The notes: generated by a model not told the origin, from the letters alone. Counted from the stretch's first letter, positions 12,680 to 49,949 are shown. The stretch: DNA of 64,000 bases from Candidatus Limnocylindrales bacterium (GCA_035526025.1 DATLDE010000012.1:20222-84221); one strand, 5' to 3'. Made by a program: numbers and translations.

Positions 12680-12790
12680 GAAGGTGAGTATACCATAACA
12701 ATTGACAGTTCACAATTAACAACTTGGGCATTAATTAAGGAGATATATTGTTAAAGGTTAAAAGTTAAATGTCAATTGCTAAACTGCCTC

Positions 12791-12820
12791 TTGACAAAGA
12801 GTTATCCACATTACTACACT
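12791..12820 (+). promoter_or_regulatory. dnaA promoter (TTGACA -35) with a consensus DnaA box TTATCCACA in the spacer (autoregulation site)
   Basis: TTGACA at 12791-12796, TTATCCACA at 12802-12810, TACACT -10-like at 12815-12820; dnaA ATG at 12854. Confidence 0.5.
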
Positions 12821-12853
12821 GGTAAACCTCGCCCGTATTTCTGCTTTTGCATT

Positions 12854-14218: not shown

Positions 14219-14368
14219 GATCATGATAAAAAAGACATTTAATTTAATCAACATACTGTACCCATTTTTATCAACTTGTTATCCACATATTTCTAAGGTT
14301 AGATTTTCGTGTTTTATTGCTTTTCTCCACTTTTCCCGATACACTACAACAACAACTAAAATTAATAT
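14219..14368. other. Candidate oriC segment: AT-rich dnaA-dnaN intergenic region with DnaA boxes
   Basis: TTATCCACA at 14279-14287, TTATCAACT at 14267-14275, a degenerate box near 14330, and an AT-rich flank, in the classic dnaA-dnaN location. Confidence 0.4.
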
Positions 14369-16837: not shown

Positions 16838-17404
16838 CTAACATCCCTCAGCCAAAGGACTAAAAGTATAGTTCTTATCCCTTAATTGACCCAATACATT
16901 TCGGCTTAAATAAAACACCACTGGGAGATCACAAATTCCCTGTTGGCTTAAGCCTTGTGACTTTAACCACGCAGTGGCATCTGCTTTTGCCTGAGCGATA
17001 TCAACAGTAATGATCTCAGCCTGAAACTGATCTGCAGCATTTGTGTAATCAATAATAATTGTTGGAGATCTGTAGAGAACGCCCGAAACTTGTCCTGCTG
17101 GGAGAAGTGACAATAACTTTTCTCTAGCTTCTGTATCGTTTTGTGATAGGGTAGTTTTGTTATTTAGCTTATCCAGCATCTTGCGCGCTGAGTCCTGGTC
17201 ATATTGTATGGGAGGGTTGGTTTTTGCTTCAATTGGTAGGGGTGTTGGCTCAATGGAGGTGGCAGATTCAGGGATGGGGGTAGGAGTAGCTATTTCTTCC
17301 GTCTTTTCTCTTGGAGAAAGCGCAAAGAAAATAACAGCAACCGTAATTATTATTAATATAATTGCAAAAATAACAATGATTACACGTTCTTTTTTAATTG
17401 TCAT
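16838..17404 (-). CDS. Hypothetical bitopic membrane protein (position and size compatible with a VirB8/PrgL-like T4SS component)
   Basis: 188 aa with an N-terminal TM and ~150-aa extracytoplasmic domain, immediately downstream of the VirB1-like hydrolase. The VirB8-like assignment is inference from gene order only. Confidence 0.3.
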   Translation of the reverse strand: MTIKKERVIIVIFAIILIIITVAVIFFALSPREKTEEIATPTPIPESATSIEPTPLPIEAKTNPPIQYDQDSARKMLDKLNNKTTLSQNDTEAREKLLSLLPAGQVSGVLYRSPTIIIDYTNAADQFQAEIITVDIAQAKADATAWLKSQGLSQQGICDLPVVFYLSRNVLGQLRDKNYTFSPLAEGC

Positions 17405-17416
17405 ACTAGTAATACT

Positions 17417-18931
17417 TTAACATGAATATTTTCCCCAGACACTTCTGGCACTTGCCCAATAGCGGAAATTACAACCAAGCAGCTTCATATTGTAATCAAT
17501 TGCCTTTGTTGTCTGTATTTCCCAATTTAAATCTCCCCGGTCATATATCCCATTTTTTCCGGGCTCAGTTGGGGGTTGGCCGGAAGGCTTGCTGCTACCC
17601 ATTTGATATAATCCCCAGGCACCTGCACAATCAAGTGAGCATTGGACTCCAACTGGTGGTGCAAACGCATTGGGGCTAAAACCACTCTCAACAGGGACGA
17701 TCATATCAAACCAGATATTGACAAATTCAGGGTTAGGCTCCTTCGACTGTAGGTGTTTGTAAAGATTGTCTTTGCTGAAATTACACTTGGGATCGCCATA
17801 ATTACCAAGAGGATTCTGCTCAGGGTATTTTGAAAAATTATATTTTCCACCACAATCATCATTTGGTGCTGGGGGCACATAGCCGTCTGAAATAGGCCCT
17901 CCGCCACCCCCTCCGTTTGTAGGGGCAGCATACGGAGTTACTGTTCCCTCAGCTTGGTTAAAAATAACTAAGTCGTTTTTAACTGCGCGAAGTTTTATGG
18001 CCAGTATTGAATTGACATTGCTCAGGATAGCGCCGGGCGAGGCCTGAAAATCTTTTAAGTTCCAAGTAGCAGTTTTTGTTACGGGATCAAATTGTGCGGA
18101 TGGACTTGAATCAACATACTCAGTCCCTTCCGGAATTTTATCAGTAATAACAATATCTATTGCCTGCTCAGGGTATGCAACTGTAATTTCATAGGGAAGT
18201 TCCTGGCCGTTTTGCGCTTCTATAGGACCTGTTTTGGTTATGGTCAGTTTGGGCGCATTGGGATCAGCCTCGCTTGGTCCTCCCATTACGACTACAATTA
18301 AGAACAATATTATTCCAAGCGGAATCATAACTTGACCGACAGGACTGCTTACAATAGCGCCTGCAATTGCAATTTTTTTAAGAGTCTTATGCTTGTCAAG
18401 GAATTGTTTTGCTTTTAAAGCAACCTGGGCTTCAGGTCCTGCTGCCTTTGCAGCTTTATTCACAACCCTATTCACGCTTTTTTTAAGCATTGCCTTGGTT
18501 CGGCTTTCTTCTCCTCCTGCTCGAGGATTTTTTGCAGCTCCCTTGGCGGCACCTTTAGCACCCCCTTTGGCTGCTCCCTGCATTCCCCCTTTGGCTGCTC
18601 CCGCAGCTCCACCGACTGCGGCGCCCCCAGCAGCGCCTGCACCAGCACCTAAGGCTCCGCCTATAGCCGTTCCCACGCCAGGCAATATTGCAGTGCCTAC
18701 CGCTGCGCCTGCTTTTCCACCAAGCTGAGCTCCTTTTTGTGCCCCTTTTACAGCACCCTTTGCTCCTTGAATTGCAGCTTGTTTGCCTGCTTCTTTCGCA
18801 GCTCCGCTTGCAGCACCTTTCGCAGCATTTCCCATACGACTTTTACTGCGTCCTCCTCGCTTGCTTGTAGAGCCTGCGCCTTGTTGGGGATACTGGTCTT
18901 CTTGGGGATCTTGAGAATCTGCTTCACTCAT
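17417..18931 (-). CDS. VirB1/PrgK-like lytic transglycosylase (SLT domain) with long Ala/Gly/Lys-rich disordered cytoplasmic N-terminus and one TM
   Basis: C-terminal VPVESGFSPNAF ... AGAWGLYQM matches the SLT catalytic motif (ES-x-FNP-x-A ... AxGLMQ). The N-terminal ~170 aa are GAKGAAKGA-type low complexity, followed by TM IPLGIILFLIVVVMGG. Confidence 0.6.
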   Translation of the reverse strand: MSEADSQDPQEDQYPQQGAGSTSKRGGRSKSRMGNAAKGAASGAAKEAGKQAAIQGAKGAVKGAQKGAQLGGKAGAAVGTAILPGVGTAIGGALGAGAGAAGGAAVGGAAGAAKGGMQGAAKGGAKGAAKGAAKNPRAGGEESRTKAMLKKSVNRVVNKAAKAAGPEAQVALKAKQFLDKHKTLKKIAIAGAIVSSPVGQVMIPLGIILFLIVVVMGGPSEADPNAPKLTITKTGPIEAQNGQELPYEITVAYPEQAIDIVITDKIPEGTEYVDSSPSAQFDPVTKTATWNLKDFQASPGAILSNVNSILAIKLRAVKNDLVIFNQAEGTVTPYAAPTNGGGGGGPISDGYVPPAPNDDCGGKYNFSKYPEQNPLGNYGDPKCNFSKDNLYKHLQSKEPNPEFVNIWFDMIVPVESGFSPNAFAPPVGVQCSLDCAGAWGLYQMGSSKPSGQPPTEPGKNGIYDRGDLNWEIQTTKAIDYNMKLLGCNFRYWASARSVWGKYSC

Positions 18932-18950
18932 GCTTTAATACTAACAAATA

Positions 18951-21065
18951 TTAAGATTCCGGTAAAACCGATGGACTGGGAGAGGGCGCAGGGGATATCG
19001 GCGACTGTGGTGATGGCGTAGGGCTCGGCTCTGCTGATGGGACTGGGGAAGAGCTGGGGGACGTATCCATAGGTTGAGGCGTGGTCTCAATGCCCGGGGC
19101 TTGTGGCTCAATCGCTGTTGGGCTTGGTGAGATTGTGGTATTGGATAAGATCTCATTCATGTTGGTGCTGATTGCATTGGAGGTAGGAGCTGCTTCTTCG
19201 GCTTTTGTCTGGCTCGCATTTGCAGCAGCGTCTTCCTGTCTCTTCAATAATTCCATAGGATTGGAGGTGATTAATTCATGTTCAAAAGGAGCTGCGAAAA
19301 CCTTCATTGCTACGTGATTTTGTCCTGCAAAGAATAAGCCCTCACCAACGTCAGAGGACAATAAAAGGGCTTTTTCCCCCTCTGATAGATAGAATGTGTC
19401 TGCGATCATATCCACTTCAGCTGTTCCCTGCTTCAAAAGGATCTGAATAGACGAATTGGTTAACACAGCCTTGCCGTATTCATTTTTGAGAAAGTCTTCA
19501 ACGTCTTGAGTAGCAGTGGTCATTCCTAGATAATATTTTCTAGCTCTTTTTGCAATTGAATAAACAAATGACGCTGAGTCCTGGTACTTCATCATGTACC
19601 ATCCCTCGTCCAGTATGAGAATTCGCTTTTTCAAAGTCTTTTTGACTTTTGTCCACACAAAATCGAGAACTATGTGCATGGCAACAGGGCGAAGTTCTTC
19701 TTCAAGATTACGTATCGAAAAAACAGTTAGGGGATTGTTGATCTCAAAATTAGATTGCTGGTTGAAAATACCAGCTGCTGATCCTTTAATGAATTTTTCA
19801 AGCCTGAAAGCCAGATCTTTTGAGGGCTGTGTCTCCATTCCAAGAAGGGTTTTGTACAAATCCTCCATCAGGGGGGGCTGCCTTTTTTGGGTTGCAGGGT
19901 CGGTTGTGATTCCTTTTTGGCGGTAACACTCAATAAGTGCACGATCCAGGATAGCGTCATGTTCTGCATCAAGATCCCCTGTGATAAGCTTTAACAAACC
20001 GTGAAGGGATAGGATTTTAAGTCCCAATTCATTTTCACCCTCTTCAAATACATCAGAAAGATCGAATGGGTTTATCTTTATGTCAGAATTAGATGAGAAC
20101 TCGACTACTTCTCCACCAAGCGCCGGGACCATGGTTCCATATTCTCCCTCAGGATCAATTACGATTACCTCAGCGCCAAGCATAAATTGTCTGGCAATTT
20201 CAAGCTTGATGCAGTATGATTTTCCGGCACCTGATTTACCCAGAACCACCTCGTTTGCGTTTTCTAGCGAGAATCGGTCAAAAATAATGAGTGATCCATT
20301 CTGTTGATTTACCCCGTACATCACTCCTTTATTTTGAGTAAGAATTGCTGATGTGAATGGAAAAGTTGACGCAAGGGATGACGTGTCCATGTTTCGGGTA
20401 ACATACAGCCTGTCTTGTCCCATGGGAAGGGTTGATTTAAATCCTTCCTCCATTTGAAGCGTTGCTGTTTTTCCAGCAAGCAGAAGAGACGCCAGGGTAG
20501 TTTGGAGCTCTTTGGTAGTCTGTTGAAGCTCTGCCAGGTCTGGTGCTGAAACAGTGATATAGAATCCGAATTGGAAAAATCTTTCAATTCCCTTTGCGAG
20601 TTCTTCCTGCAGTCCCAAGGCATCTTCAAGTGCTGCTTCAACCGTTGGATCAGTGACTTTTCCAGCCTCTGCGTCCGATGACAAAGTTGCCTGCATCTCA
20701 CCAATTTTTCGCTTCAAATCGGCCAGCACGTCTGAGCTTGAGGTCGGATAGCAAAACATTGATATATCTAGGGTATGATCATAATCAATAATTGGCTGAA
20801 GCCAACCAGGGGATACATACCGTGGATAGCCTGAGATAAAAAGCGTTGAGTAGAACGCTTCCCCGACTCTTATAAATCTAAAATCAACCTCAACAGAAGA
20901 GGGTGCGATAATATCTATTATTGAGGTCAGTCCTTTTTCGGTTGCTTCAATGCTCTTGCTTACAGGAGGTTGAGCCTGTGCGCCTGCTGTTTTTTTGCTT
21001 TTTACAGGATTTGCTGAAGCAGTTGGTGCTGCTTTGGGAGATTTATTCAAAAAAGGGAGTTTCAT
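18951..21065 (-). CDS. virB4: VirB4/TrbE/CagE-family type IV secretion ATPase with Pro/Ser-rich C-terminal tail
   Basis: Walker A VVLGKSGAGKSY, Walker B ILILDEGW, and conserved TQ...DF (ATQDVEDFL) motifs. 704 aa, of which the C-terminal ~90 aa are SPxP low complexity. Confidence 0.85.
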   Translation of the reverse strand: MKLPFLNKSPKAAPTASANPVKSKKTAGAQAQPPVSKSIEATEKGLTSIIDIIAPSSVEVDFRFIRVGEAFYSTLFISGYPRYVSPGWLQPIIDYDHTLDISMFCYPTSSSDVLADLKRKIGEMQATLSSDAEAGKVTDPTVEAALEDALGLQEELAKGIERFFQFGFYITVSAPDLAELQQTTKELQTTLASLLLAGKTATLQMEEGFKSTLPMGQDRLYVTRNMDTSSLASTFPFTSAILTQNKGVMYGVNQQNGSLIIFDRFSLENANEVVLGKSGAGKSYCIKLEIARQFMLGAEVIVIDPEGEYGTMVPALGGEVVEFSSNSDIKINPFDLSDVFEEGENELGLKILSLHGLLKLITGDLDAEHDAILDRALIECYRQKGITTDPATQKRQPPLMEDLYKTLLGMETQPSKDLAFRLEKFIKGSAAGIFNQQSNFEINNPLTVFSIRNLEEELRPVAMHIVLDFVWTKVKKTLKKRILILDEGWYMMKYQDSASFVYSIAKRARKYYLGMTTATQDVEDFLKNEYGKAVLTNSSIQILLKQGTAEVDMIADTFYLSEGEKALLLSSDVGEGLFFAGQNHVAMKVFAAPFEHELITSNPMELLKRQEDAAANASQTKAEEAAPTSNAISTNMNEILSNTTISPSPTAIEPQAPGIETTPQPMDTSPSSSPVPSAEPSPTPSPQSPISPAPSPSPSVLPES

Positions 21066-21733
21066 TTCTTGTCTCCTCCTGTAACTATTGATGCGCCAAC
21101 AGCGCTTCCAAGTTGTTCAACCTCAATATTGGTCCCATTGTTGTAAATGTCGTAATAAAGCTTTATCAAGTCATCCCGTTCAAGAATTCTTGCTGATACG
21201 GCAAATTTTTGAAGCTGTCCTAGCACTTGCTCTGCTTTAGACTGCAGATTTTTAGCCGCACCTTCAGGAAGAGCAGTGGTCGTTGCTTTTTTGCTTTTCT
21301 GAGTAGTCGCCTTAGCTCCGGACACTCCCATTTCAAGAGATGAAAAGGGAATGACGATATAAAAAGATTTACTCAAAACAACGTTAACTGTGACCATTTC
21401 CTGAACAAAGTCCCGATAATAGCTGATATATGAGCTAAGTTGCGGATTTTTGCTGTTTTTTATAATTTCATCAAGATCCTTAAGGTAATTTGAGATGTCA
21501 ATTCTTTTATTTCTTATTAAGATTTGAATAGGAAAAGAAAGTGAATTAAGAAGAGATGCATAAGAAAAGATTCTTGAATCCTGCTCTCTTTTGGAAAGAA
21601 GCGCGAAGTTACTGGCTGTAATCTCAATTATCAAACATGCTGCCCCGCCCTGTAAAACCACCATGTTATCAACAAAATCTGTTATTTCAGTAAATTTCTG
21701 AGTTGAAGCGTGAATTTTTTGGGCAGCACTCAT
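21062..21733 (-). CDS. Hypothetical cytoplasmic protein in T4SS-like operon
   Basis: 223 aa, no TM, translationally coupled to virB4 (4-nt overlap). No recognisable motif. Confidence 0.4.
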   Translation of the reverse strand: MSAAQKIHASTQKFTEITDFVDNMVVLQGGAACLIIEITASNFALLSKREQDSRIFSYASLLNSLSFPIQILIRNKRIDISNYLKDLDEIIKNSKNPQLSSYISYYRDFVQEMVTVNVVLSKSFYIVIPFSSLEMGVSGAKATTQKSKKATTTALPEGAAKNLQSKAEQVLGQLQKFAVSARILERDDLIKLYYDIYNNGTNIEVEQLGSAVGASIVTGGDKK

Positions 21734-21734
21734 T

Positions 21735-22961
21735 TTAACTAAATAATTCCTTTCTTAATTCTTCTCTTTTGTCATAAGAAATGATTTCAATAGGAAGCAT
21801 GATTTGGCCATTTGCCGTGATGTTGATCTCATCAAATGTGTGGAGCTTTTTAGGATCCTCAAGAGAGATTGTATAAGTGCCAGAGGATAGTGGAGTGGCT
21901 GATGCGAAATTTCCAAGCGTGTTGGTCTTAAAAGCCCTTACGGGATTGTTATCTTTGTCTTTTATCTCGACCAAGATGTTTGGAAGCACGTTGTTTCTTG
22001 AATCTTTTACCATCCCTGAAACAACATTTGGAGTGTCAGATACAAGAATGCCCATTTTTTTATTCAATTCCTTTGGCACACTTCTAACATGGCCAACAGC
22101 TTTGGGTATTTCAGCATCAGGCTTTCTAATCACCTGTGTAATTACAGGGGCTTTCTGGGTGAGCAATTGTGATTTTAATTTAACTATTTCTTGCTCAAGC
22201 ATCTGTTTTTGAGAATGAATTTGTTGAACTTGAGCCTCAAGATCTAATGTTTTCTGGTGAATTGCAGCGAGTGCTTTCGGGTCATGTTGGGCAGACTCGT
22301 CTTTTTTTGCAAATTCAAGCTGTTTTTTAAGCGCTTCCTCTTTTGCCAACAGCACTTGTGGGGATGGGATTTGTGGCGAGGGATTTATTTGATTTGGGCT
22401 TATTGGACTTATCGGATGTGGTGGAGTCGGCTGCAGGGGTGTAGGGGTCAGGCCTGGTGCGGAAGTAGAGAGTGATTTGAGAAATGCAGCTTCTCTTGCA
22501 TCCTGAGGATTATGTATAGATTTTGCGGCGCTGGTGATTAAGATCTTTTGAAGTGCCAAGCCGCGGCTATTGATCATTTGTTGTTGAGGTGTAGATCCGG
22601 GGTGCTCAGTTGCAGGTTTTACAGCTTTTTGCGCATGGAAGCTTGAAAAACTGAATTTATTATCATTTTTATGATAAACATATTGATTTGGTGAAAGCAG
22701 CGCTTTAAAAAAATTTCCGGCCATTACATCAATTGGTCTTCCATCAATTGGAAGGAATGCTGCGATCGCACCGCTTGCGCCTAGAAATGGAATTAAAAAG
22801 GCTTTTATAATTACGCCAAGCAATCCCTTAATGGGCAAGTAGTAAGCTATAAATGCTCCAATTACGCCTACCGCAACATAACCAAATTGTTTAACCGTCA
22901 TAGCTCCAATGAGCTTGAACTGAAATCCTGTTACGTTTTGTGGAATAGGGTGTTGATCCAT
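21735..22961 (-). CDS. PrgI/VirB3-like two-TM N-domain fused to Pro/Gln-rich coiled-coil linker and C-terminal beta-sandwich (CarboxypepD_reg-like) domain
   Basis: N-terminal FQFKLIGAMTVKQFGYVAVGVI ... two TM resembles the PrgI family (VirB3 analog) found upstream of VirB4 in monoderm T4SS. C-terminal SGMVKDSRNNVLPNILVEI ... TYTISL is transthyretin/CarboxypepD_reg-like. Confidence 0.45.
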   Translation of the reverse strand: MDQHPIPQNVTGFQFKLIGAMTVKQFGYVAVGVIGAFIAYYLPIKGLLGVIIKAFLIPFLGASGAIAAFLPIDGRPIDVMAGNFFKALLSPNQYVYHKNDNKFSFSSFHAQKAVKPATEHPGSTPQQQMINSRGLALQKILITSAAKSIHNPQDAREAAFLKSLSTSAPGLTPTPLQPTPPHPISPISPNQINPSPQIPSPQVLLAKEEALKKQLEFAKKDESAQHDPKALAAIHQKTLDLEAQVQQIHSQKQMLEQEIVKLKSQLLTQKAPVITQVIRKPDAEIPKAVGHVRSVPKELNKKMGILVSDTPNVVSGMVKDSRNNVLPNILVEIKDKDNNPVRAFKTNTLGNFASATPLSSGTYTISLEDPKKLHTFDEINITANGQIMLPIEIISYDKREELRKELFS

Positions 22962-39945: not shown

Positions 39946-40118
39946 AGCGACAAATCGCTAACTTTTAGCGACTACTTTTAGCATATGTAAAGCGAATTAA
40001 AAAGTCAAAGAAAAAATGGAGGAGTCTGGAAATTAGAGTTTGCTTATGCTATACTCGTGTTAATCCCAAAACTTTTCGTAAAAAACGAGAAGACGAGGGA
40101 TGATTTTTTTATAAATTT

Positions 40119-42245
40119 ATGGCTGATCAATCAAGAAACGTACCGCTAGATAAAATCCGTAACATCGGCATTATTGCCCACATTGACGCTGGAAAAACTA
40201 CCACAACTGAGCGAATTCTGTTTTATACGGGAAAAACCTATAAAATCGGGGATATTGATGAGGGTAATACTCAGATGGACTGGATGGAGCAGGAAAAAGA
40301 GCGAGGAATCACTATCGTTTCAGCCGCAACCACTGCTTTCTGGACACATGCTCAGAATCCAACAGATCCTTACCGCATTAACATAATTGATACACCAGGA
40401 CACGTTGATTTTACAGCAGAGGTTGAGCGCTCTCTACGTGTTCTTGATGGAGGGATTACAGTTCTTGACGCCGAAGAGGGTGTTCAGTCACAGTCAGAGA
40501 CGGTATGGCGCCAAGCTGATAAATACAAGGTTCCACGTCTTTGCTTTGTTAACAAAATGGACAAATTGGGTGCTGATTTTCTTTACACAGTTGGTACTAT
40601 TGAAGACCGACTCGGTGCAAATTGTGCCATAATGGTTCTTCCAATTGGTGCTGAGAACACATATGTCGGAAACGTAGATCTTCTTTCGCGCAAATCTTAC
40701 ACTTGGAACTCTGAAGAGTTGGGAGCAAAATATGATGTAAAAGACGAGGTCCCAGAGGACATGAAGGACAAGGTTGAGGAGTACAGGTCTAAATTAATTG
40801 AAAAGATTTCAGAAACAGACGATGCGTTACTTGAAAAATATCTTGGAGGAGAAGAGCCAACAGTTGACGAGCTTAAGGCAGCACTCCGCGCCGCTGTTAT
40901 TGCATATAAGTTAGTTCCGATTTATGCAGGTACGTCACTAAGAAATAAAGGCGTACAGCCACTTCTTGATGCAGTTATAGATTATCTCCCCTCACCTGTT
41001 GATCTTAAAGAGGTAAAAGGTCTTCATCCCAAGACTGGTGAGGCAGTGCTTCGTCAATTAGTTCCTGATGAAGCATTTTCAGGACTGGCTTTTAAAATTC
41101 AGAATGATCCACACGTTGGTAAGCTTTCGTATTTTAGAGTGTATTCAGGAACTTTGGTTTCTGGTTCATATATCTACAACAGCACAAAAGGTGTTAGAGA
41201 GCGCGTTGGTCGGATACTTCTTATGCATGCCAACAACCGCGAAGAGGTTAAGGAAGCCTATGCTGGAGAAATTGTCGCAATTGTAGGCCTTAAAGACACT
41301 ATAACAGGAGACACTCTTTGTGATGAGGCCAAGCCAATTGTTCTAGAGCAGATTACGTTCCCTGAGCCTGTTATCTCACTTGCAATTGAACCAAAAACAA
41401 AATCAGACCAGGAGAAGCTTGGGTTCTCTATAAAAAGACTAACTGAGGAAGACCCGACTTTCTCTGTTAAATCCAACCCGGAAACAGGCCAGACTATCAT
41501 CTCAGGAATCGGAGAGCTTCAGCTTGAGATTATGGTTGACAGGATGAAGCGGGAATTTGGTGTAGAGGCCAACGTCGGTGCTCCTATGGTTGCTTATAAA
41601 GAAACAATTGAGGCTGAGACTGAGGCTGAGGGAAAATACATCAAGCAGTCAGGGGGTCGCGGACAATACGGCCATTGTTACTTGCGTGTGACACCTGTTC
41701 CACGAGGAGAGGGATACTCATTTGTTAATGCCATAAAAGGTGGAGCGATCCCAGCTGAATTTGTCAAAGCTGTTGAAAAGGGAGCCAAAGAAACTCTTGA
41801 AAACGGTGTGCTTCTTGGATATCCACTGATTGATGTCAAAGTTACCTGTTATGACGGATCTTATCACGATGTTGATTCAAGTGAGATTGCATTTAAAATC
41901 GCGGCAAGTCAGGCAATCCAGGCTGCTACCAAAAAAGCTGGTATCACCCTTCTTGAGCCTATTATGAAAGTTGAAGTTACAACTCCATCTGATTATATGG
42001 GAGAAGTAATTGGGGACTTGTCATCAAAAAGAGCACAGATACTAGGATCTGAGGAGAAAAATAAAGCAACGATTATCATGGCTATGGTTCCTCTTGCTGA
42101 ATTTTCAGGATATGCCACACAGCTTCGATCACTCACTCAGGGAAGAGCTCACTACTACATGGAACCTTCTCACTACGAAGCAGTGCCCAAGAACATTGTC
42201 GAAGGCCTCCTCGCCAAGTCCACATTTACAGGAAGAGTAGAGTAA
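40119..42245 (+). CDS. fusA: Translation elongation factor G
   Basis: G1 motif [24 protein letters not shown], and full five-domain length of 708 aa. Confidence 0.97.
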
Positions 42246-42265
42246 AAACTCCATACATCCCATAG

Positions 42266-42294
42266 TTGACAGCAAGTATTTTATATTATATAAT
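42266..42294 (+). promoter_or_regulatory. Textbook sigma70 promoter TTGACA-17nt-TATAAT placed so that transcription would start at or next to the ATG at 42301 (leaderless)
   Basis: TTGACA at 42266-42271, TATAAT at 42289-42294, ATG at 42301, no SD. Confidence 0.45.
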
Positions 42295-42300
42295 ACAGCT

Positions 42301-42591
42301 ATGATTAGAGAGCGTGAACCCTTTGTGGGTCCTATGATGGGCCAATTTAGATTGGAAAGAGTGGATGCTATGGAGCAGGCTGCAGGTGAATTTGATATGC
42401 CCTTTGAGCGCATAGCAGTTGAAGGCGAGACCTTGTTGACTGACACTGGAAAAAGAATTGATATTATGCAAGGTCATATGTTTGTGAGCGTTGGTACCGG
42501 CCTAGAAGGTTGGCTTACTCGATTTTGGAAACGGGTTGATGAGATATCACCTAAAGCCCCTCCAATAAAAGTATCCCAAGGGAAAATCTAA
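42301..42591 (+). CDS. Hypothetical small protein, GC-elevated (~45%), Arg/Glu-rich; first gene of the fusA-tuf insertion
   Basis: 96-aa ORF with a perfect upstream promoter and composition unlike the host background; no recognised motif. Confidence 0.35.
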   Translation: MIREREPFVGPMMGQFRLERVDAMEQAAGEFDMPFERIAVEGETLLTDTGKRIDIMQGHMFVSVGTGLEGWLTRFWKRVDEISPKAPPIKVSQGKI

Positions 42592-42625
42592 AAGACCGAA
42601 AAACCACACTAAAGTTTAATTAATA

Positions 42626-42697
42626 ATAGAAAGTAAAAGTTATATCAGTTATAATATCCTCATGTCTACTGTTCTCGGGGTTTTTGCACATCCAGAT
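42626..42697 (+). repeat. Direct repeat copy A: duplicated promoter + first 12 codons of the PIG-L deacetylase gene (MSTVLGVFAHPD then stop)
   Basis: ~80% identity (first 14 nt, TATAAT box, and codons 1-12 nearly identical) to 43245-43316. Confidence 0.8.
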
Positions 42698-42733
42698 ATT
42701 TCATAACTTCTCCAAAAGTGCTATAATTTAGTC

Positions 42734-43009
42734 ATGTCACTCAAGTTCCCAATCACTATCAAAATCATCTACGAAAAAGAGTCAAAGGATGCACCATTTG
42801 TCGCATATATTCCTGAATTTGATGTTTCATCATGTGGTAAAACAGAAGAGGAAGCAAAAAGCAATGTAAAAGAAGTGCTGGAAATTACCCTTGAAACAGT
42901 CAAAAAGCAGAATAAGCTTGAAGAATTTTTGAAAGAAGCAGGAGTTTCTGTCAAAAAGCCAAGTCTATTCCCCAAAATCAGTTTTGAGCCATTTGTGTTC
43001 TCTGCCTAA
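42734..43009 (+). CDS. hicB: Type II toxin-antitoxin system HicB-family antitoxin (UPF0150-type, short)
   Basis: 91 aa; ITIKIIYEKESKDAPFVAYIPEFDVSSCGKTEEEAKSNVKEVLEITLE is typical of the HicB RNase-H-like fold; immediately followed by hicA. Confidence 0.65.
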   Translation: MSLKFPITIKIIYEKESKDAPFVAYIPEFDVSSCGKTEEEAKSNVKEVLEITLETVKKQNKLEEFLKEAGVSVKKPSLFPKISFEPFVFSA

Positions 43010-43240
43010 ATGCCTGCAATAAAGCCAATTCATCATAAAAAATTAGTAGAGTTTTTTGAAAAGTCAGGTTGGAAGTATGAGCGGACTAAAGGTGATCATA
43101 TAATTTTCACCAAAAAGGGATATCTCAGGCCAGTGGTAATTCCAATGTATAAAACAATTCCGGTTTTTATAATCAAAAACAATCTGAGAACCGCAAAGAT
43201 AAGTAATGAGGAATACTTCAAGGGATTAAAATTAAATTAG
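43010..43240 (+). CDS. hicA: Type II toxin-antitoxin system HicA-family mRNA interferase toxin
   Basis: 76 aa; KKLVEFFEKSGWKYERTKGDHIIFTKKG...PVVIPMYKTIP matches the HicA/YcfA family (GSHH-type region as GDHI). Confidence 0.7.
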   Translation: MPAIKPIHHKKLVEFFEKSGWKYERTKGDHIIFTKKGYLRPVVIPMYKTIPVFIIKNNLRTAKISNEEYFKGLKLN

Positions 43241-43244
43241 ACCA

Positions 43245-43316
43245 ATAGAAAGTAAAAGGGAGTTCCGCTATAATATTCTCATGTCTACAGTTCTCGGAGT
43301 ATTTGCGCATCCGGAT
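43245..43316 (+). repeat. Direct repeat copy B: native promoter/5' end of PIG-L deacetylase gene
   Basis: Pairs with 42626-42697. Confidence 0.8.
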
Positions 43317-43934
43317 GATGAAGCTTTTTTTACAGGCGGTACGCTTGCCACACTTGCCAAAGAGCACGATGTCTATACGATTTGTATCACAGATGGTGCT
43401 GCTGGGGAGAATAGTAGCAATAAAGAAGGCGAACTCTCAGAAATTAGGCGCGATGAGCTTCTGGATGCTGGAAAAATTCTCGGTGTAAAACAGACTTTTT
43501 TCCTAGACTATAAAGATGGAACTCTCTCAAACAATCTCTATCATGATATCGCAGAGAAGATACAAAAAATTACAGATGAACTGAAGCCTGAATTGCTCCT
43601 TACATTTGAGCTCCGGGGTATATCAGGACATATTGATCATATGGCGACATCTGTGATCACCTCCTATGTTTTTGAGAAGGCAGAATACATAAAAGAGCTT
43701 TGGTATTTCTGTAATACAGAGCAAATTAAAGAAACAGTTGGAGATTATTATATTTTTTGGCCACCAGGATACAAAGATTCTGATATCTCAAAGACTATTG
43801 ATATCTCTCCTGTTTGGGACACAAAAGTCTCAGCGATGATAGCTCACAACTCTCAAATGCATGATGTGATGCGTATTCTCAAGCGTGCTGAAACCCTGCC
43901 AAAAGAAGAAAATTTCATAATAATTAAAAAATAA
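43281..43934 (+). CDS. PIG-L/LmbE family N-acetylglucosaminyl deacetylase
   Basis: VFAHPDDEAFFTGGTLA ... HIDH motifs; TATAAT 10 nt upstream of the ATG (leaderless-like). Confidence 0.8.
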   Translation: MSTVLGVFAHPDDEAFFTGGTLATLAKEHDVYTICITDGAAGENSSNKEGELSEIRRDELLDAGKILGVKQTFFLDYKDGTLSNNLYHDIAEKIQKITDELKPELLLTFELRGISGHIDHMATSVITSYVFEKAEYIKELWYFCNTEQIKETVGDYYIFWPPGYKDSDISKTIDISPVWDTKVSAMIAHNSQMHDVMRILKRAETLPKEENFIIIKK

Positions 43935-43938
43935 CAGT

Positions 43939-44331
43939 ATGGCTTTTTCAAAATATAGAATTCTCATATATTCAGAAAATCCGGACAAGCTGATGGAATT
44001 TTATCGTGATGTCTTGGGCTTTGAACTGCTTGAACATTTAGATATTCCAGGAGACTATGGCTATATGCTTAGGGTTATTGATGATCTCTGGGTTTGGATT
44101 GGCAAGCACTCTGAAATTAAAGGAAAAGCCAAGGAAAATTTCAGGCATTTATTTAATCTTTATCCAGAAGAAGGAGTTGGATACTGGTTTAATAAAATCA
44201 AGAATAGTCCTCAAGTGAAAATTATTGCTGAGCCATTTTTGGCTCCTTTCTCAACTCCTGACAATCAGGTTTGGTTCTGTACTTTTCTTGATCCAGAAGG
44301 AAATTGCTGGCAATTTGTGGGTAAGAAGTAG
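43939..44331 (+). CDS. VOC/glyoxalase-bleomycin resistance family protein
   Basis: 130 aa; N-terminal ...LMEFYRDVLGFEL pattern typical of the VOC fold. Confidence 0.5.
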   Translation: MAFSKYRILIYSENPDKLMEFYRDVLGFELLEHLDIPGDYGYMLRVIDDLWVWIGKHSEIKGKAKENFRHLFNLYPEEGVGYWFNKIKNSPQVKIIAEPFLAPFSTPDNQVWFCTFLDPEGNCWQFVGKK

Positions 44332-44349
44332 AAAAGGTATAATAGGGAA

Positions 44350-45447
44350 ATGAAAAAGTTTCTTTTTCTGATGTCCCTGCTGGTGGTTTTTCTGTTTTTT
44401 GGCTTTAAAGTTGTTCGGCAGAATGTAAAAAATGATCTAGCCGCTCCAGTCTCTCTTCCCTCCCCAACGCCCATCCAGACATCTATTAAAAACGTAAAAG
44501 GAGTTCGTAGCGCGGATATTAAAAAGTCTATTTTTGTGCCTTATTGGGGGCTAAATGGCGAGGATATTGAGGATAAGTACGATAGCTATTTATACTTTGG
44601 AGTAGTCCCGACAAGATCAGGCATAAATAAGAAAGAAGCAGGGTATATAGGTATAGATAAATTTTTAAAAGTAACTCCAAAAAGCTCTGAGAAAAAACTA
44701 GTTATTCGGATGCTAGATCCTGACATAACCTTTCCGGTTTTGAAGGATACCGCAGCACAAAAAGTTGTTATTCGTGACAGCTTAAGGATTGCGATAGAGC
44801 ATGGATTTTCAGGAGTAGTTCTTGATCTGGAAGTTTCTGCGGTTCCATTTGACTCTCTCATTAAGCAGATAAATGAATTTAGCAAATTATTTTATGAGGA
44901 ATCAAAAGATAAAGACTTGGGTTTTGCAATCATGTTTTATGGTGATACTTTTTACAGAATTCGCCCCTTTGACATAAAAGCTTTATCAGCAAATGCGGAT
45001 GAATTTTTAATCATGAGCTATGATTTCAGCAAAAGTCGTGGAAATCCAGGTCCTAATTTCCCGCTTCGGGGTAAAGAAGTTTATGGCTACGATATGACAA
45101 CTATGATTGATGATTTTTCACGATATCTGCCAGATGAAAAGACAACTATTGTCTTTGGTTTATATGGTTATGATTGGGAAGTTGATGACAAGGGGAATGC
45201 AGTTGGAACAGGGGAGGCGAAATCCTATCAAAAAATAAGCAAGGAATTTTTAGGAAAATGTGAATACAAAGAGTGCAGTGTTAAGAGCAAGAATGATTCA
45301 AGGGAAACTGAGATTCGCTATACAGATAGCGAGAATAAAAAGCATATTGTCTGGTTTGAGGATATGGAATCAGTTTCCGCAAAACAGAATTTCTTAAAAG
45401 CAAAGGGGATTAGCAATTTTTCTTTCTGGGCCTACTCGTATTTTTAA
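44350..45447 (+). CDS. Secreted glycoside hydrolase family 18-like protein (degenerate DxDxE motif)
   Basis: Signal peptide; GFSGVVLDLE (GH18 DGxDxDWE-like region retaining D-x-E) and LIMSYDF (MxYD motif). Confidence 0.45.
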   Translation: MKKFLFLMSLLVVFLFFGFKVVRQNVKNDLAAPVSLPSPTPIQTSIKNVKGVRSADIKKSIFVPYWGLNGEDIEDKYDSYLYFGVVPTRSGINKKEAGYIGIDKFLKVTPKSSEKKLVIRMLDPDITFPVLKDTAAQKVVIRDSLRIAIEHGFSGVVLDLEVSAVPFDSLIKQINEFSKLFYEESKDKDLGFAIMFYGDTFYRIRPFDIKALSANADEFLIMSYDFSKSRGNPGPNFPLRGKEVYGYDMTTMIDDFSRYLPDEKTTIVFGLYGYDWEVDDKGNAVGTGEAKSYQKISKEFLGKCEYKECSVKSKNDSRETEIRYTDSENKKHIVWFEDMESVSAKQNFLKAKGISNFSFWAYSYF

Positions 45448-47700
45448 TTACTCAACAATTTCACTTACTTCAACGGCTGTTAAGCCAGTCCTTAACAAAG
45501 GCTTATCAAATACTGGAGGAGCAGGAGTGTAATTTGGTTCCTGATCAAGTTGCCTGAAGTAAAAAACAACGTTTAGGTAATTATCAGGTTCAGGCAAAAA
45601 CGTAAGCGGGAGAATTTGCTCTGAAGTTGCCTGATCGAAAAAGGATATGAATACATAAGGACTGTTAGTCTTGGTCTTGCCAACCCGTACTAGGTCTTTT
45701 ATTTCTTTTTCATTTAATCCAAGTTTTTTAGCATATTCTCTGAGCACTTTTTCTATCTCTGTTTTTTTAGTAATAGATCCGCGGGTAGGGGGATTGAGTT
45801 TCCTTAGGTTTGAAAGATAGTCATAGTTAATGGCTTGATATGAGTTTCCGTTAATCAGCATTTTCCCATTGTTCCCTAGGGTAACATCATAACCGCTATT
45901 GTAAGAAGGTTTATCATTATAAACTGCTGTTAAGATCTGAACTCTCACGTTTTGGCCCTCATTTCCGTATAAATACAGAGGCGATTGGTTGCATTTTCCT
46001 TCTGCTCTGAGTTGGACCCTTCTATCCATAATGCACTGGTTGCGGTTATAGCCCATTATTCCACACTGCTCAAGTGCCAATGAGGTACAATTTACGGTTT
46101 TAGTTAATTTATAGGTCTGACGGGTGGGCACTGGACCTGTGGGAATAGGCGTTGGGATTGGTTTTGTCTGTTGCTCTTGTCTTTTTATAGTTAGAGACGG
46201 TTTGAAAAGAAAGGTTTTAAGTTGAAGATTTTCCTGAGATGGTTTATCTGAATAAAGATCAATAATTGTTACATTGGGATCTGATGGGTTTCCGCCTTGT
46301 GCATATGCTTTCATGCCGAGCACCTTTTGAAAATAATTTGAGGGAAGAGTTGTGACATACTGAAAATGTGTGTCGCTTACCGGGATTCTGAAGGCTTGAT
46401 TAGTTTTGGGATCGAAATTGAAAAGCTGTGTCAGTGATGGCGCGTACACTTCTCCTAAATTCCCTAGGCTTGATGCAGAATCGTCAATTGTTGCAATTAG
46501 ATATTTATCAGTAGTAAAGCTTGAAACAAGGGAATTGGATCCTGGAATTTTCAATCTGTTTGGTTTTTGACTTGTAAGATCGTATCTAAAAAGTCCATTT
46601 TTGTTTTCGATTTTTGAAATTACAGTAATCATAATGTTATTTGACGCTCCGCCCCATTCCGCTGTTGGATAAATGTCATTGTTTGATAGGTTAGTGAGCT
46701 TCCTGCGAGCTAGAGTTGACGTGTCTAGAAGCTCAATTGTGTTAGGAGTTAAAAGAGCCTGGCGAAATCCCTCCGGAGCCGCTTTACCATCACCATTCTT
46801 ACCATCATATCCTGCAAAAACAAGAAACTTTCCATCATGCGATAAGGATGGCTGCGTTCCATAAGAGCCTTCTTTCATTTGGTCCAGTTCCCTCTTATTG
46901 CTGCCTGTAAAATCGGAAACACCCATTCCGTATGCCCAGCCTGCTCCGCCGTTGGGGTCATTTGGCAGGAATTTATCCGTAAATACTTTTCCGTCATTAA
47001 GTATGGCCCGGGGATAATGAATTGGCTCGGTTGCCAGCTCGTCGTACAATAGCTGTTTATTGCCCGGAGTGGATAATTTAACTGCAAATACCCGGGAGCG
47101 GCCACCTTGTAATACTTCAGATCTAGGCGCAAATCTTACTTCCCAAATTACCATGTATTCTTTGTTGGGAGAAAGAATATAGTCATCAATTCCAAATCCC
47201 GGGGAGGCAGTAACTAGTGTCTTTGATGACTTTTCTTTTATCTGAAAACTTGTGATTTGCGTTCCATAATCTCTGTTATCAGTTTGATTAATAAATATCA
47301 AATTTTCAGGGGATAATACGCTGACTTTTTTGATATTAAAAGGGAGAGTTGCGATTTGAGCTGATTTATTTGATAGAAGGTCAATTGATGTTATTACAGA
47401 TTGTTCACCCTTCCACGACCCGTACACAATCGTATTTGAGGTCTTAAATTTCTCGATTATTGCTTGATTTTCTTTTTGTTTTTGGGCTGATGTTTTTGGG
47501 CTTTGCGAGTTTTCCTGTACGGTATTTATCTCATCTTCATTTTTGATAGAAGTTTTTGTTGAAAATAAAAGGATTGTAAAGACAAATATAAGCGCAAGAA
47601 ATACAATACCAGAAGTCAAAAGAATTGTTTTTTTTGAAAATCTCCCGTGTTTAGGGATTGATTCAGGGGATTCTGGGTTAGTTATGTAAGTTTCGGACAT
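45448..47700 (-). CDS. Large membrane-anchored surface protein, beta-propeller (PD40/TolB-like) region + Cys-containing C-terminal domain; paralog A
   Basis: 750 aa; N-terminal TM; LSHDGKFLVFAGYDGKNGDG PD40-like repeats; conserved C-terminal ~200 aa shared with the upstream paralog. Confidence 0.55.
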   Translation of the reverse strand: MSETYITNPESPESIPKHGRFSKKTILLTSGIVFLALIFVFTILLFSTKTSIKNEDEINTVQENSQSPKTSAQKQKENQAIIEKFKTSNTIVYGSWKGEQSVITSIDLLSNKSAQIATLPFNIKKVSVLSPENLIFINQTDNRDYGTQITSFQIKEKSSKTLVTASPGFGIDDYILSPNKEYMVIWEVRFAPRSEVLQGGRSRVFAVKLSTPGNKQLLYDELATEPIHYPRAILNDGKVFTDKFLPNDPNGGAGWAYGMGVSDFTGSNKRELDQMKEGSYGTQPSLSHDGKFLVFAGYDGKNGDGKAAPEGFRQALLTPNTIELLDTSTLARRKLTNLSNNDIYPTAEWGGASNNIMITVISKIENKNGLFRYDLTSQKPNRLKIPGSNSLVSSFTTDKYLIATIDDSASSLGNLGEVYAPSLTQLFNFDPKTNQAFRIPVSDTHFQYVTTLPSNYFQKVLGMKAYAQGGNPSDPNVTIIDLYSDKPSQENLQLKTFLFKPSLTIKRQEQQTKPIPTPIPTGPVPTRQTYKLTKTVNCTSLALEQCGIMGYNRNQCIMDRRVQLRAEGKCNQSPLYLYGNEGQNVRVQILTAVYNDKPSYNSGYDVTLGNNGKMLINGNSYQAINYDYLSNLRKLNPPTRGSITKKTEIEKVLREYAKKLGLNEKEIKDLVRVGKTKTNSPYVFISFFDQATSEQILPLTFLPEPDNYLNVVFYFRQLDQEPNYTPAPPVFDKPLLRTGLTAVEVSEIVE

Positions 47701-47714
47701 GATACTATTTTTAA

Positions 47715-49949
47715 TTATTCAACGATTTCACTAATTTCTATAGCTGTAAACCCTGATCTGTTTATAGGTTTCTCAAAAGTCTGTGGAATTGGTGAATAAT
47801 TAGGTTTTGTATTAAGCAGTTTGAAATAAAACACAACATTTAGATAATTATCTGGGGTAGGGGCAAATGAAAGGGGGAGTATGTTGGTTGATGTTTCGTG
47901 ATCAAAGAAAGATATAAATACGTATGGAGTTGTTACTTTATTCTTTCCTGATTTTACCAAATAATCTGTTTCTTTCGTATTTAGCCCTAATTTTTTGGAG
48001 TATTCTCGAAGAACCCTCTCAACTCCCATGCGTGGCACTATGGTTCCTTTGGTAGGTGGATTTATCCTTCTGAGGTTGGAGCGGTAGTCGTAATTTAGTC
48101 CTTCATAGCTTTGTCCATTGACCAGCATTTTACCCTCTTCTTGGAGGGTTACACTATATCCATCAGAGTATTTTGGTATATCGTTATAAATTGTTGCCTG
48201 CACCCTAACTTTTACCTGTTCCCCAGTTGACCCATATAAATAGAGAGGTGATTTGTTGCATACGGCTTCAGGAGTTCCTTTGGTTGCCCTATTTGCATCC
48301 CACGCTTTGCTATGACAGTCTCTGAATCCATCTGAGTCTTCCTGATAACCCATCGCAAGGCATTGCTCTGTTGCAAGGTCCCGACAGGAAACAGTTTTTG
48401 TAAGAGTCGGAAGGCTGCGTACTGGTGTAGGAGCATTTGGGGTATTTGGAGGAGTTGTTGGTTTTGGGGGTGTACTTTGCTGTTTTTCCCTGACTGGTGC
48501 AAGTGCTGGTTTCATCAAAAATGTTTTAAGCTGGAGATTTTCCTGCGATGGCTTGTCAGAATAAAGGTCAATTATGGTCACATTGGGTTGTCCGGGGTTG
48601 CCTCCTTGAGCATATGCAATCCCTAATACATTTTGAAAATAATTTGACGGGAGTACTGTAATGAATTGCGCCAGAGAATTTCCAAGCCTGATGTTCTGCA
48701 GATCTCCTGTGGTACTGTCTTGAGTATAAAGTGTTGTTAGGGAAGCAGCATATTCTTCGCCAAGATTTGCAAGTGATGATCTTGAATCATCCGATATTCC
48801 AATAAGAGATATGGTTGGTGATAAATTACTGATAAAGGCGTAAGGAGGTTGAGAATTTTCTGGGAGAATAACTTTTTTCAAAGATTTTGAAGAGGTGTTA
48901 TATGTAAATAATCCGCTCTCGCCATCTATTTTTGAAAGGAGGGTTACGATGATACTTCCCGAAAGATTGTCCCAGAAAACATTTGAATATATATTGCTGT
49001 TTGGAAGATTTTCAAGTCTACTTCTTTGAAGCGTTGTTGTATTGAGTAGCTCAACTGTATTGGGAGTCAGAAGAGCCTGACGTATCCCGCCTTTTATAAC
49101 TTTTCCATCTCCAAGTGATCCGTCATACCCTGCAAAAACCAGCGAATTTCCATCAGGAGACAGGAAAGGTTGGGTCCCGTAGGTCCCATGGACCATTGAT
49201 TCGACGTCCTTTTTGTTGCTTCCGTCAAAATCAATAACACCCATTCCGTATGCCCATCCCATGCCTGAACTAGGATCATTTGGGAGGAATTTATCGGTGA
49301 ATACTTTTCCGTTATTAAGTATGGCTTTTGGATAATGGATAGGTGTCGTATTGGCAACCTCATCATAAAGTAAGCGTTTCAGAGATGGGTTAGAAAGATC
49401 CACTGCATAAACCCGAGATCTTCCTCCTTGTAGAATTTCTGACCCGCTTGCAAAGGATACCTCCCAAATGGCCATGAATTTCTTGTTTGGGGAGAGTATG
49501 TAATCATCAATTCCAAATCCATTGTCGGCTGGAATGTTTGCTTTTTCTTTTTTATCTTTTAGCTCATAAATTTTAATTTGTTTTCCGTGGTCACGTATAT
49601 TTGTATCATCAATATAGGCAAGTGAATTGGAATTAAGGACGCTTACTTTTTTGATGCTGATTGGCAAGGAAGCTATAACTGATGAGTTTAGGCTACTCAA
49701 ATCTACAGCAGTGATCTCAGAATTTGAGCCGGTCCAGCTTCCATACACAATTGTATTAGGGGCTATTGGCCTAGTATTACCCGAAGGAGTAGGTCTTTGA
49801 GCTTGGTTTGGATCAACTGGATTACCTGAGTTTGGGTTGTTCCGAACTGTCGTAAAACCTGCAGCGCCTAGAACTAGGACGATAACTATGAATGCAATCC
49901 ACCCCAAGGGGTTTGTGCGGGGAGTTTGGGCAGCCTCGTTTTTATCCAT
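47715..49949 (-). CDS. Large membrane-anchored surface protein, paralog B (tandem duplicate of 45448..47700)
   Basis: 744 aa; collinear similarity with paralog A, e.g. IVYGSWTGSNSEITAVDL vs IVYGSWKGEQSVITSIDL, and C-termini ...GFTAIEISEIVE vs ...GLTAVEVSEIVE. Confidence 0.55.
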   Translation of the reverse strand: MDKNEAAQTPRTNPLGWIAFIVIVLVLGAAGFTTVRNNPNSGNPVDPNQAQRPTPSGNTRPIAPNTIVYGSWTGSNSEITAVDLSSLNSSVIASLPISIKKVSVLNSNSLAYIDDTNIRDHGKQIKIYELKDKKEKANIPADNGFGIDDYILSPNKKFMAIWEVSFASGSEILQGGRSRVYAVDLSNPSLKRLLYDEVANTTPIHYPKAILNNGKVFTDKFLPNDPSSGMGWAYGMGVIDFDGSNKKDVESMVHGTYGTQPFLSPDGNSLVFAGYDGSLGDGKVIKGGIRQALLTPNTVELLNTTTLQRSRLENLPNSNIYSNVFWDNLSGSIIVTLLSKIDGESGLFTYNTSSKSLKKVILPENSQPPYAFISNLSPTISLIGISDDSRSSLANLGEEYAASLTTLYTQDSTTGDLQNIRLGNSLAQFITVLPSNYFQNVLGIAYAQGGNPGQPNVTIIDLYSDKPSQENLQLKTFLMKPALAPVREKQQSTPPKPTTPPNTPNAPTPVRSLPTLTKTVSCRDLATEQCLAMGYQEDSDGFRDCHSKAWDANRATKGTPEAVCNKSPLYLYGSTGEQVKVRVQATIYNDIPKYSDGYSVTLQEEGKMLVNGQSYEGLNYDYRSNLRRINPPTKGTIVPRMGVERVLREYSKKLGLNTKETDYLVKSGKNKVTTPYVFISFFDHETSTNILPLSFAPTPDNYLNVVFYFKLLNTKPNYSPIPQTFEKPINRSGFTAIEISEIVE

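Follow-up and report, generated by a model that had tools for sequence, protein, structure and literature searches.

A stretch of DNA of 64,000 nucleotides (nt), hereafter the window (GCA_035526025.1 DATLDE010000012.1:20222-84221), carries a hicB-hicA toxin-antitoxin (TA) operon at the 5' end of a gene for a PIG-L/LmbE-family deacetylase. The operon lies between two copies of the promoter and N-terminal codons of that gene, one displaced (copy A) and one live (copy B). Comparisons with related loci supported the placement of hicBA within the 5' end of the PIG-L gene. We consider it fairly probable that the two copies are recombination scars from the insertion of hicBA at the start of this gene, formed by one-sided recombination and then homologous exchange without a dedicated recombinase.

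Copies A and B (42625-42697 and 43244-43316) form a 73-nt direct repeat that is ungapped, 84% identical (61/73) and has a spacing of 619 nt, as determined by a repeat search of the window. A first-pass annotation, made from the sequence alone, had reported two segments of about 80% identity at 42626-42697 and 43245-43316, and had asked whether their likeness might be due to AT-rich composition. The identity remained far above the composition-matched background. In the 3-kb region 41500-44500 the best ungapped self-diagonal scored 37, compared to 60 dinucleotide-preserving shuffles whose scores averaged 12 and did not exceed 14, and an origin of the repeat by chance or AT bias was rejected on this basis. 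In addition, the 14-mer ATAGAAAGTAAAAG occurs twice in the 64 kb, both times within the repeat copies (chance expectation 0.11), and there were no non-genic repeats of 40 nt or longer in the window beyond this pair. An assembly artefact was also rejected, because an independent Logan contig had the same gene order and a locus from another sample (L091, below) had the same stub-hicB junction.

Each copy comprises a TAGAAA-17-TATAAT promoter, 6 nt, an ATG and the codons MSTVLGVFAHPD; the promoter scan and codon comparison thereby bore out the earlier observation of a TATAAT box and the first 12 PIG-L codons in both. The identity between the copies ends past GAT, which is codon 12. Beyond this point copy A continues ATT TCA TAA, and what had been called a dead 13-codon stub is indeed a displaced copy, but one of 14 sense codons plus TAA (Table 1). 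Similarly, the hicB-hicA insert, previously put at about 550 bp, has an exact length of 546 bp. On the upstream side there are approximately 20 nt of fainter similarity (42610/43225), which may be native hicA 3' sequence. For annotation purposes, the 14-codon open reading frame (ORF) is better treated as a pseudogene fragment than as a gene.

The closest genomes to the window, and all of its syntenic relatives, belong to Candidatus Levybacteria (Levyibacteriota)/Patescibacteria. Because of this, the metagenome-assembled genome has probably been mis-binned or mislabelled as Limnocylindrales, and the window probably belongs to the Levybacteria, in the candidate phyla radiation (CPR). The NCBI record of P0001, a protein identical to the window HicB, names Candidatus Limnocylindrales bacterium.

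The comparison covered 17 loci in which an orthologous PIG-L gene lies downstream of fusA (the window, L001, L003-L008, L089, L091 and L095-L101). The content of the fusA-PIG-L interval differs in nearly every locus and, judged from this gene content, the slot is a hotspot between two conserved genes. The interval consists of a promoter only, 32-51 bp, in L001 and L005 (32 bp in L001). It contains orf96 in L095, a member of a 157/158-aa family in L099 and L091, a member of a 120/127-aa family in L089 and L101, a GNAT-like gene in L003, a 111-aa gene in L004, several genes in L006-L008, L096 and L100, and orf170 with a GH1 glycosidase gene in L098. In most bacteria fusA and tuf form one operon, and the hotspot falls within it.

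L095 has fusA, orf96, a single promoter and an intact PIG-L gene, with no hicBA. The window is colinear with L095 over 40117-42697, that is, to the exact end of the stub, and then again from 43225 into PIG-L, and 66 of the 73 positions in copy A agree with the live 5' end of L095. Since L095 is colinear to the stub end and has one intact gene there, an insertion at codon 12/13 is supported. The first-pass annotation had proposed that the TA pair was inserted into the 5' end of the deacetylase gene, of which an intact copy was kept or regained, and the empty site in L095 agrees with this and provides the position. The operon is likewise absent from L001, L089 and L099, and the promoter and 5' end are present as a single copy in L095, L001, L089, L099, L101 and others, which is the state that had been anticipated for relatives without hicBA.

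Table 1. Features of the fusA-PIG-L locus in the window.
Feature	Position	Strand	Details
fusA (elongation factor G, EF-G)	40119..42245	+	708-aa ORF; conserved left flank of variable slot
First-slot cassette	42246..42624	+	Perfect TTGACA-17-TATAAT promoter, 42266-42294; orf96, 42301-42591
Copy A, displaced promoter and PIG-L codons 1-12	42625..42697	+	TAGAAA-17-TATAAT, 42627-42655; breakpoint 42697/42698; nhmmer E=1.5e-11
Stub ORF (MSTVLGVFAHPDIS)	42662..42706	+	14 codons + TAA
Inserted hicBA operon	42698..43243	+	Own promoter TTCATA-16-TG-TATAAT, 42700-42727; hicB, 42734-43009; hicA, 43010-43240
Copy B, live promoter and codons 1-12	43244..43316	+	Promoter 43246-43274; runs on into PIG-L
PIG-L/LmbE-family deacetylase, anchor gene	43281..43934	+	PF02585, 108 bits
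Glyoxalase-fold gene, right flank	43939..44331	+	ORF and domain scan
GH18 gene, right flank	44350..45447	+	ORF and domain scan

The hicBA junction is not private to the window genome, as it was also found in L091, a locus on a 463-kb contig from another sample with the order fusA, orf158, stub1, hicB, hicA, stub2, GH1 and PIG-L. In L091 stub1 ends at GAT/ATTT, as in the window, and the hicB promoter that comes next is also the same. Over 677 nt of the stub-hicBA-stub unit the two loci have 84% identity, and their hicBA modules are 85% identical at the nucleotide level. Stub1 is decayed, with a -10 element of TTTTAAT, a 22-nt deletion and a frameshift. The orf158 upstream of it is related to orf157 of L099; a proposed homology between orf96 and orf158 was rejected as there was no similarity.

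L091 also revealed a second stub-cassette pair. Its stub2, which has a Pro-to-Leu change, extends to about codon 16 and then gives way to GH1 sequence. The same stub-GH1 junction occurs in L098 (fusA, orf170, stub, GH1, PIG-L), where there is no hicBA and the stub carries disabling changes. The two junction types differ in geometry: the hicBA breakpoint is at about +36 with an upstream reach of at least -37, and that of GH1 is at about +46 with a reach of about -18. An nhmmer profile built from 13 live 5' ends detected extra copies only at the four stubs (E 2e-8 to 3e-12), and none in the rest of the window or at the other loci. We considered L003 as a third junction, based on an 18-nt repeat (TATAATATYCNCATGAGT) around its GNAT gene. 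This was rejected since the repeat is mostly the general TATAAT-N6-ATG pattern (nhmmer E=0.26). A metagenome scan with a degenerate 30-nt pattern for codons 3-12 returned 10 loci, nine of which were unrelated high-GC PIG-L genes, and L089 alone was useful.

The segments around the repeats differ in their divergence from the relatives. The window fusA is 95% identical in amino acids and 80-83% in nucleotides to that of all the Levybacteria loci, and fusA nucleotide identity was 80-85% in all pairs. Based on the fusA synonymous divergence (dS) of 1.4-1.9, the compared genomes represent well-separated species. Against this background the window is, on its sequence divergence, a mosaic that contains three blocks much younger than the fusA divergence. 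Relative to L095, identity is 80% in fusA, 89-92% over 42246-42697, non-coding sequence included, and 79% in the PIG-L body; orf96, which is common to the window and L095 only, is 90.6% identical in amino acids and 89% in nucleotides, with a dS of 0.40 versus 1.94 for fusA. Relative to L091, hicB has a dS of 0.80 and fusA 1.36, and PIG-L and GH18 are saturated. Relative to L001, PIG-L is 89.4% identical in nucleotides with a dS of 0.50, compared to 1.42 for fusA, and identity drops at the PIG-L/glyoxalase boundary (glyoxalase dS 1.3; L095 and L091 have no glyoxalase gene). Since the dS of PIG-L is 0.5 where that of fusA is 1.4 and that of the glyoxalase gene is 1.3, PIG-L itself appears to behave as an exchangeable block.

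The mosaic blocks have their edges within or next to the repeated promoter and 5' units. Because of this, at least one natural crossover probably occurred within the 5' PIG-L/stub homology, where the orf96 block ends on the right. Stub A differs from the L095 live copy at 7 positions, and stub1 of L091 differs from A at about 18 positions plus indels. Stub A thus seems better kept than a neutral relic of the age of the shared junction would be, which fits its membership of the young orf96 block. As to allelic origin, the stub and live copies of L091 (TCT versus AGT) and the block structure of the window pointed to different sources, but copies A and B of the window shared derived features with one another and with L095. 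We also considered copy B as a chimera, using informative sites relative to L095 and L001. The comparison was confounded upstream of about -32, where L001 is fusA coding sequence, and only the L001-like nature of the PIG-L body was retained from it. We dropped the idea that AGTAAAAG in the repeats comes from the sequence around the fusA stop (GAGTAAAAG in L001), as this was a suggestive by-eye likeness too short to test.

There were no hallmarks of a mobile element at the locus. No recombinase or transposase families were present among 46 ORFs that cover almost all of the window, no tRNA gene was found in a scan of the window, and there were no inverted repeats at the cassette ends (42698/43243). 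As these features are lacking, as hicBA occurs elsewhere without repeats and as the breakpoints differ, a transposon, an integron or an integrative element is disfavoured. A transposon or insertion sequence with target-site duplication was rejected in particular because the duplication is 73 nt long and diverged, versus the 2-15 bp expected; of the target-site or recombination scar that the first-pass annotation had suggested, the recombination scar stands and the transposase-type target-site duplication does not. An integron cassette was rejected given the lack of a recombinase family in the window, a repeat that is a direct copy of a gene start, and the differing hicBA and GH1 junctions. An integrative element of the e14/icd type was rejected as the cargo is hicBA only and no integrase was found.

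Homology-facilitated illegitimate recombination (HFIR) is known from naturally transformable bacteria (Acinetobacter, S. pneumoniae, P. stutzeri; primary papers cited in PMC5361080 and PMC3240628), and requires one homologous anchor and one illegitimate junction, with no element-encoded function. It predicts a stub of recipient origin beside donor cargo and a donor gene start, a layout like that of the present locus. In the mechanism we favour, a self-promoted hicB-hicA operon would have recombined into PIG-L at codon 12/13. An incoming cargo-promoter-PIG-L fragment would have been anchored by homology to the resident PIG-L body, and its other end would have joined illegitimately just past the HPD codons. 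The resident promoter and first codons would have been left behind as the 14-codon stub, and an intact promoter and 5' end, supplied or retained, would have kept the deacetylase functional. With conserved sequence on either side, the unit of stub, cargo and live 5' end could then serve in RecA-type homologous recombination between diverged Levybacteria, by which cassettes may have moved to genomes with other upstream content, been combined (as in L091) or been deleted. Recombination between a stub and the live copy would restore a state like that of L095 or L098. We infer the pathway (HFIR followed by homologous recombination), the direction of transfer and the competence-based uptake of DNA from these patterns.

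Regarding uptake, type IV pilus genes (PilO) adjoin fusA, and natural competence, with integration of DNA by homologous recombination, is known from the Saccharibacteria, also members of the CPR (PMC10633639). Based on both, DNA uptake by analogy is plausible. On the minus strand at 16838-22961 the window also has genes for a TraG/VirB4-like P-loop ATPase (18951-21065) and a PrgI-family protein (21735-22961). This cluster resembles the type IV secretion system of Patescibacteria, which is akin to the conjugation machinery of monoderms (PMC12102498), and is a possible alternative route of DNA exchange.

Several observations sit less comfortably with HFIR followed by homologous exchange. Among the loci, only copies A and B and the live copy of L095 have AATAGAAAGTAAAAG and the Leu codon CTC, and these three match one another at 61-66 of 73 positions; A matches L091 stub1 at 55 and B matches stub2 at 59. 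This likeness would fit a duplication of resident sequence, or later homogenisation or replacement, better than a foreign donor 5' end. There are only two independent junction types, in 3 of the 17 loci. No original context of this hicBA cassette was recovered. Lastly, the pattern of substitution between A and B is less telling than it first appears. All five coding differences in codons 1-12 are synonymous and at third positions (P=0.0015, assuming all five changes neutral). However, just 2-3 of the five fall on the stub branch, all of them from G to A at fourfold sites (GCG to GCA, CCG to CCA), as AT-biased neutral decay would produce. For this reason the all-synonymous pattern seems mainly to mirror live-allele divergence and is weak evidence for a recently live stub. 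As the blocks of this mosaic region differ in ancestry, the A/B differences would largely reflect allelic exchange and to a lesser extent simple decay after duplication.

The same likeness of A, B and L095 supports an alternative that we regard as unlikely yet worth serious attention, namely that approximately 73-90 bp of the resident promoter and 5' end were duplicated in place, by replication slippage, template switching or staggered-end break repair, and that hicBA was captured between the copies. The copies would have been identical at first and have diverged by allelic exchange of the live gene. That the stub and live copy of L098 both have the rare ACG at codon 3 speaks for such a duplication, and copy B being L001-like from about -22 into the PIG-L body is consistent with later replacement. 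However, stub2 and the live 5' end of L091 are clearly of different allele classes (Ser-2 TCT versus AGT; 54/73 matches), two separate events of duplication and capture with different end points would be needed, and gene conversion can also yield similarity within a genome.

A maintained function for the stub, as an extra promoter and leader peptide that drives or regulates hicBA, is compatible with an origin by insertion but we consider it improbable. The window copy keeps its -35 and -10 elements, the 6-nt spacing to the ATG and an open 14-codon frame with zero non-synonymous changes, and the 91-aa HicB has no recognisable DNA-binding domain. By contrast, the degraded stub1 of L091 accompanies an intact hicBA with its TG-TATAAT promoter, and L091 stub2 and the L098 stub are also disabled. 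Slightly less probable still, in our view, is a site-specific cassette system of the integron or integrative-element kind, in which a recombinase encoded elsewhere would act on a site in the PIG-L 5' end, such as the palindrome CATCCGGATG, and circular cassettes would bring a replacement promoter and N-terminus. Such a system would account for hicBA and GH1 having entered within about 10 nt of one another, beside a perfect 10-bp palindrome kept in live copies, and for the preference for CCG at Pro-11 (described below); the arrays resemble cassette arrays, and there is a precedent in e14/icd (PMC4759930). Weighing against it are the lack of a recombinase family in the 46 ORFs, breakpoints and upstream extents of duplication that differ between hicBA and GH1, the absence of attC-like or inverted-repeat structures, and the presence of the same hicBA family without flanking duplication in other CPR genomes.

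At the right junction there is a possible 13/15 match (TTAAA.TT.AATTA). The hicA 3' end (TTAAAATTAAATTAG) resembles the sequence upstream of the L095 promoter (TTAAACTTTAATTAAG), and other HicA proteins also end in ..LKL; this likeness could be a patch of junctional homeology and not part of the duplication.

The inserted module was identified as a hicB-hicA pair with the antitoxin gene first, as the first-pass annotation had noted, and its toxin and antitoxin roles are predicted. The genes are co-oriented, the hicA ATG directly abuts the hicB stop, and the promoter of hicB begins 2 bases past the breakpoint. HicA matched PF07927 in Pfam at 40.4 bits (cut-off 27) over residues 10-64 of 76, and the 91-aa HicB matched PF21748 (UPF0150) at 23.7 bits, which is under the cut-off of 27.3. 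HicB homologues carry that name in NCBI and JGI, and four of them (P0005-P0008) had 79-81% identity. Searches of HicB, HicA and orf96 against PDB and NCBIfam sequences produced nothing significant. An AlphaFold model of HicB based on 27 homologues had a predicted local distance difference test (pLDDT) score of 64, with residues 74-91 unstructured in the model (pLDDT <50). Its best fold match was TTHA0281 (probability 0.99, root-mean-square deviation (rmsd) 2.2 Å over 55 columns), and it also matched the N-domain of B. pseudomallei HicB, 6g1c (probability 0.90, rmsd 1.7 Å), with E-values of 0.14-1 for these matches that are non-significant. No recognisable ribbon-helix-helix (RHH) or helix-turn-helix (HTH) DNA-binding domain was detected in HicB by the Pfam scan or in the structure model.

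The module resembles HicAB type II TA systems in having a PF07927 HicA and a small HicB/UPF0150-like protein in one operon, a pairing kept across CPR lineages. It differs in having the antitoxin gene first and in a HicB of only 91 aa in which the RHH/HTH domain for autoregulation was not detected. The pair was also found in L091, L092-94 and L102-111, representing three different contexts in several CPR lineages. The idea that a flanking duplication is a general trait of this hicBA family was rejected, as the pairs of L092-94 and of the Roizmanbacteria loci L102-111 have no repeats.

The locus has counterparts among known systems. For the displacement arrays of the Vibrio cholerae type VI secretion system (T6SS) effector-immunity genes, and for Rhs and contact-dependent inhibition (CDI) orphans, HFIR followed by homologous recombination has been proposed (Kirchberger et al. 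2017, PMC5361080). These arrays share with our locus incoming DNA anchored by homology, a piece of the resident gene kept as an orphan, serial arrays, mosaic loci and the lack of an integrase. The serial orphan fragments between cassettes are seen here in L091, where stub1, hicBA, stub2, GH1 and the live gene follow one another, and the empty-site relatives with one copy have been described above. In the T6SS, Rhs and CDI arrays it is 3' toxin ends with immunity genes that are displaced, and selection for immunity explains why they are retained, whereas here the displaced pieces are a promoter and 12-16 N-terminal codons of PIG-L, the cargo (a TA pair or a GH1 glycosidase) is unrelated to the anchor, and the hosts are CPR bacteria. 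Together, these comparisons indicate that the locus is a case of stub-separated cassette stacking at the fusA-PIG-L hotspot, reshuffled among Levybacteria species, and a variant of the known displacement arrays, with no new mechanism.

Two other systems are similar in part. In E. coli icd (icdA/icdC), where prophage e14 or phage 21 inserts, 10 of 12 single-nucleotide polymorphisms between the gene ends are synonymous (PMC4759930). There, as here, the insert supplies a replacement gene end, the displaced end stays as a pseudo-fragment and the differences are mostly synonymous (5/5 here). However, e14 is a prophage of tens of kb with its own integrase and an 11-bp core that replaces a 3' end, while here a 5' end and promoter are duplicated around 546 bp of cargo and no integrase or core site was found. 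Integron arrays are comparable in their fixed chromosomal platform, small single-function cassettes with a repeated element between them, and promoters directed into the cassettes. Our locus differs from them in having no IntI or attC, in a repeated element that is a gene-start copy, in the entry of new cassettes beside the anchor gene and in variable breakpoints.

The CPR/Patescibacteria have tiny genomes with few recognisable mobile elements, and little is understood of how they acquire and exchange accessory genes. The locus provides a sequence-resolved case in which cassettes (a TA pair, a glycosidase and hypothetical genes) were stacked beside a conserved gene and exchanged among species so diverged that the synonymous sites of their core genes have reached saturation. 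The pattern suggests that homologous recombination together with one-sided illegitimate recombination, plausibly following DNA uptake, would suffice for the flux of accessory genes, and orphan 5' stubs would be a simple marker for such hotspots in metagenomes. We speculate, with considerable doubt, that the stubs act as portable homology arms and possibly outward promoters, such that fusA-PIG-L would be an integrase-free, RecA-dependent gene-capture platform and, in reduced CPR genomes, the functional counterpart of an integron. If this speculation is correct, the nucleotide conservation of the PIG-L 5' end, including its palindrome, would keep the platform recombinogenic across species.

The PIG-L protein resembles the BshB2, BshB and MshB models of NCBIfam but scores far under their cut-offs. 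In a comparison with 15 other live PIG-L 5' ends, codons 10-13 at 43305-43320 (GCGCATCCGGATGATG) contained the perfect 10-bp palindrome noted above. Pro-11 is CCG in 12 of 16 loci and CCA in none, versus 14% CCG and 38% CCA among the proline codons of the genome, and the sole CCA at Pro-11 occurs in dead stub A. Codon identity is 0.64 in the first 22 codons of PIG-L versus approximately 0.51 in the remainder. The CCG bias, the palindrome and the higher 5' codon identity suggest a constraint at the nucleotide level on the PIG-L 5' end, which may stem from leaderless translation, from RNA structure, or from a site of recombination or restriction.

A TATAAT followed by exactly 6 nt and an ATG, with no Shine-Dalgarno sequence, precedes five ORFs in this region, namely orf96, the stub, hicB, PIG-L and GH18 (42289-42303, 42650-42664, 42722-42736, 43269-43283 and 44337-44352, respectively). 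This arrangement suggests that leaderless or near-leaderless mRNAs are the local rule. The product of orf96 had no known family in the Pfam scan. Its promoter region is of a type shared with orf170, being CCCATAGTTGACA in the window (42246-42275), L095 and L098. L091 has a small scar at 4324-4350 that involves this region: past the fusA stop there is CTATCCCATAG, the start of the orf96/orf170-type promoter region, and the sequence then switches to ATTTACTTTTTAA, the promoter of the orf157/158 cassette, as in L099 (55-85).

In L089 (1713-1925) and L101 (4323-4537) the 120/127-aa cargo gene comes after a conserved non-coding stretch of approximately 200 nt that contains hairpins and a U-tract and could be a small RNA or a leader. 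The cargo gene itself has a strong terminator hairpin at its 3' end, just ahead of the PIG-L promoter. Elsewhere in the window, dnaA and dnaN lie within 12776-15475, which places the window near the replication origin. Between GH18 and tuf, on the minus strand, are two tandem paralogues of 750 and 744 aa (45448-47700 and 47715-49949) that have no Pfam family and contain segments 79-85% identical in nucleotides. L001 does not have them, with tuf directly following GH18, and L095 and L097 each have one gene of this type.

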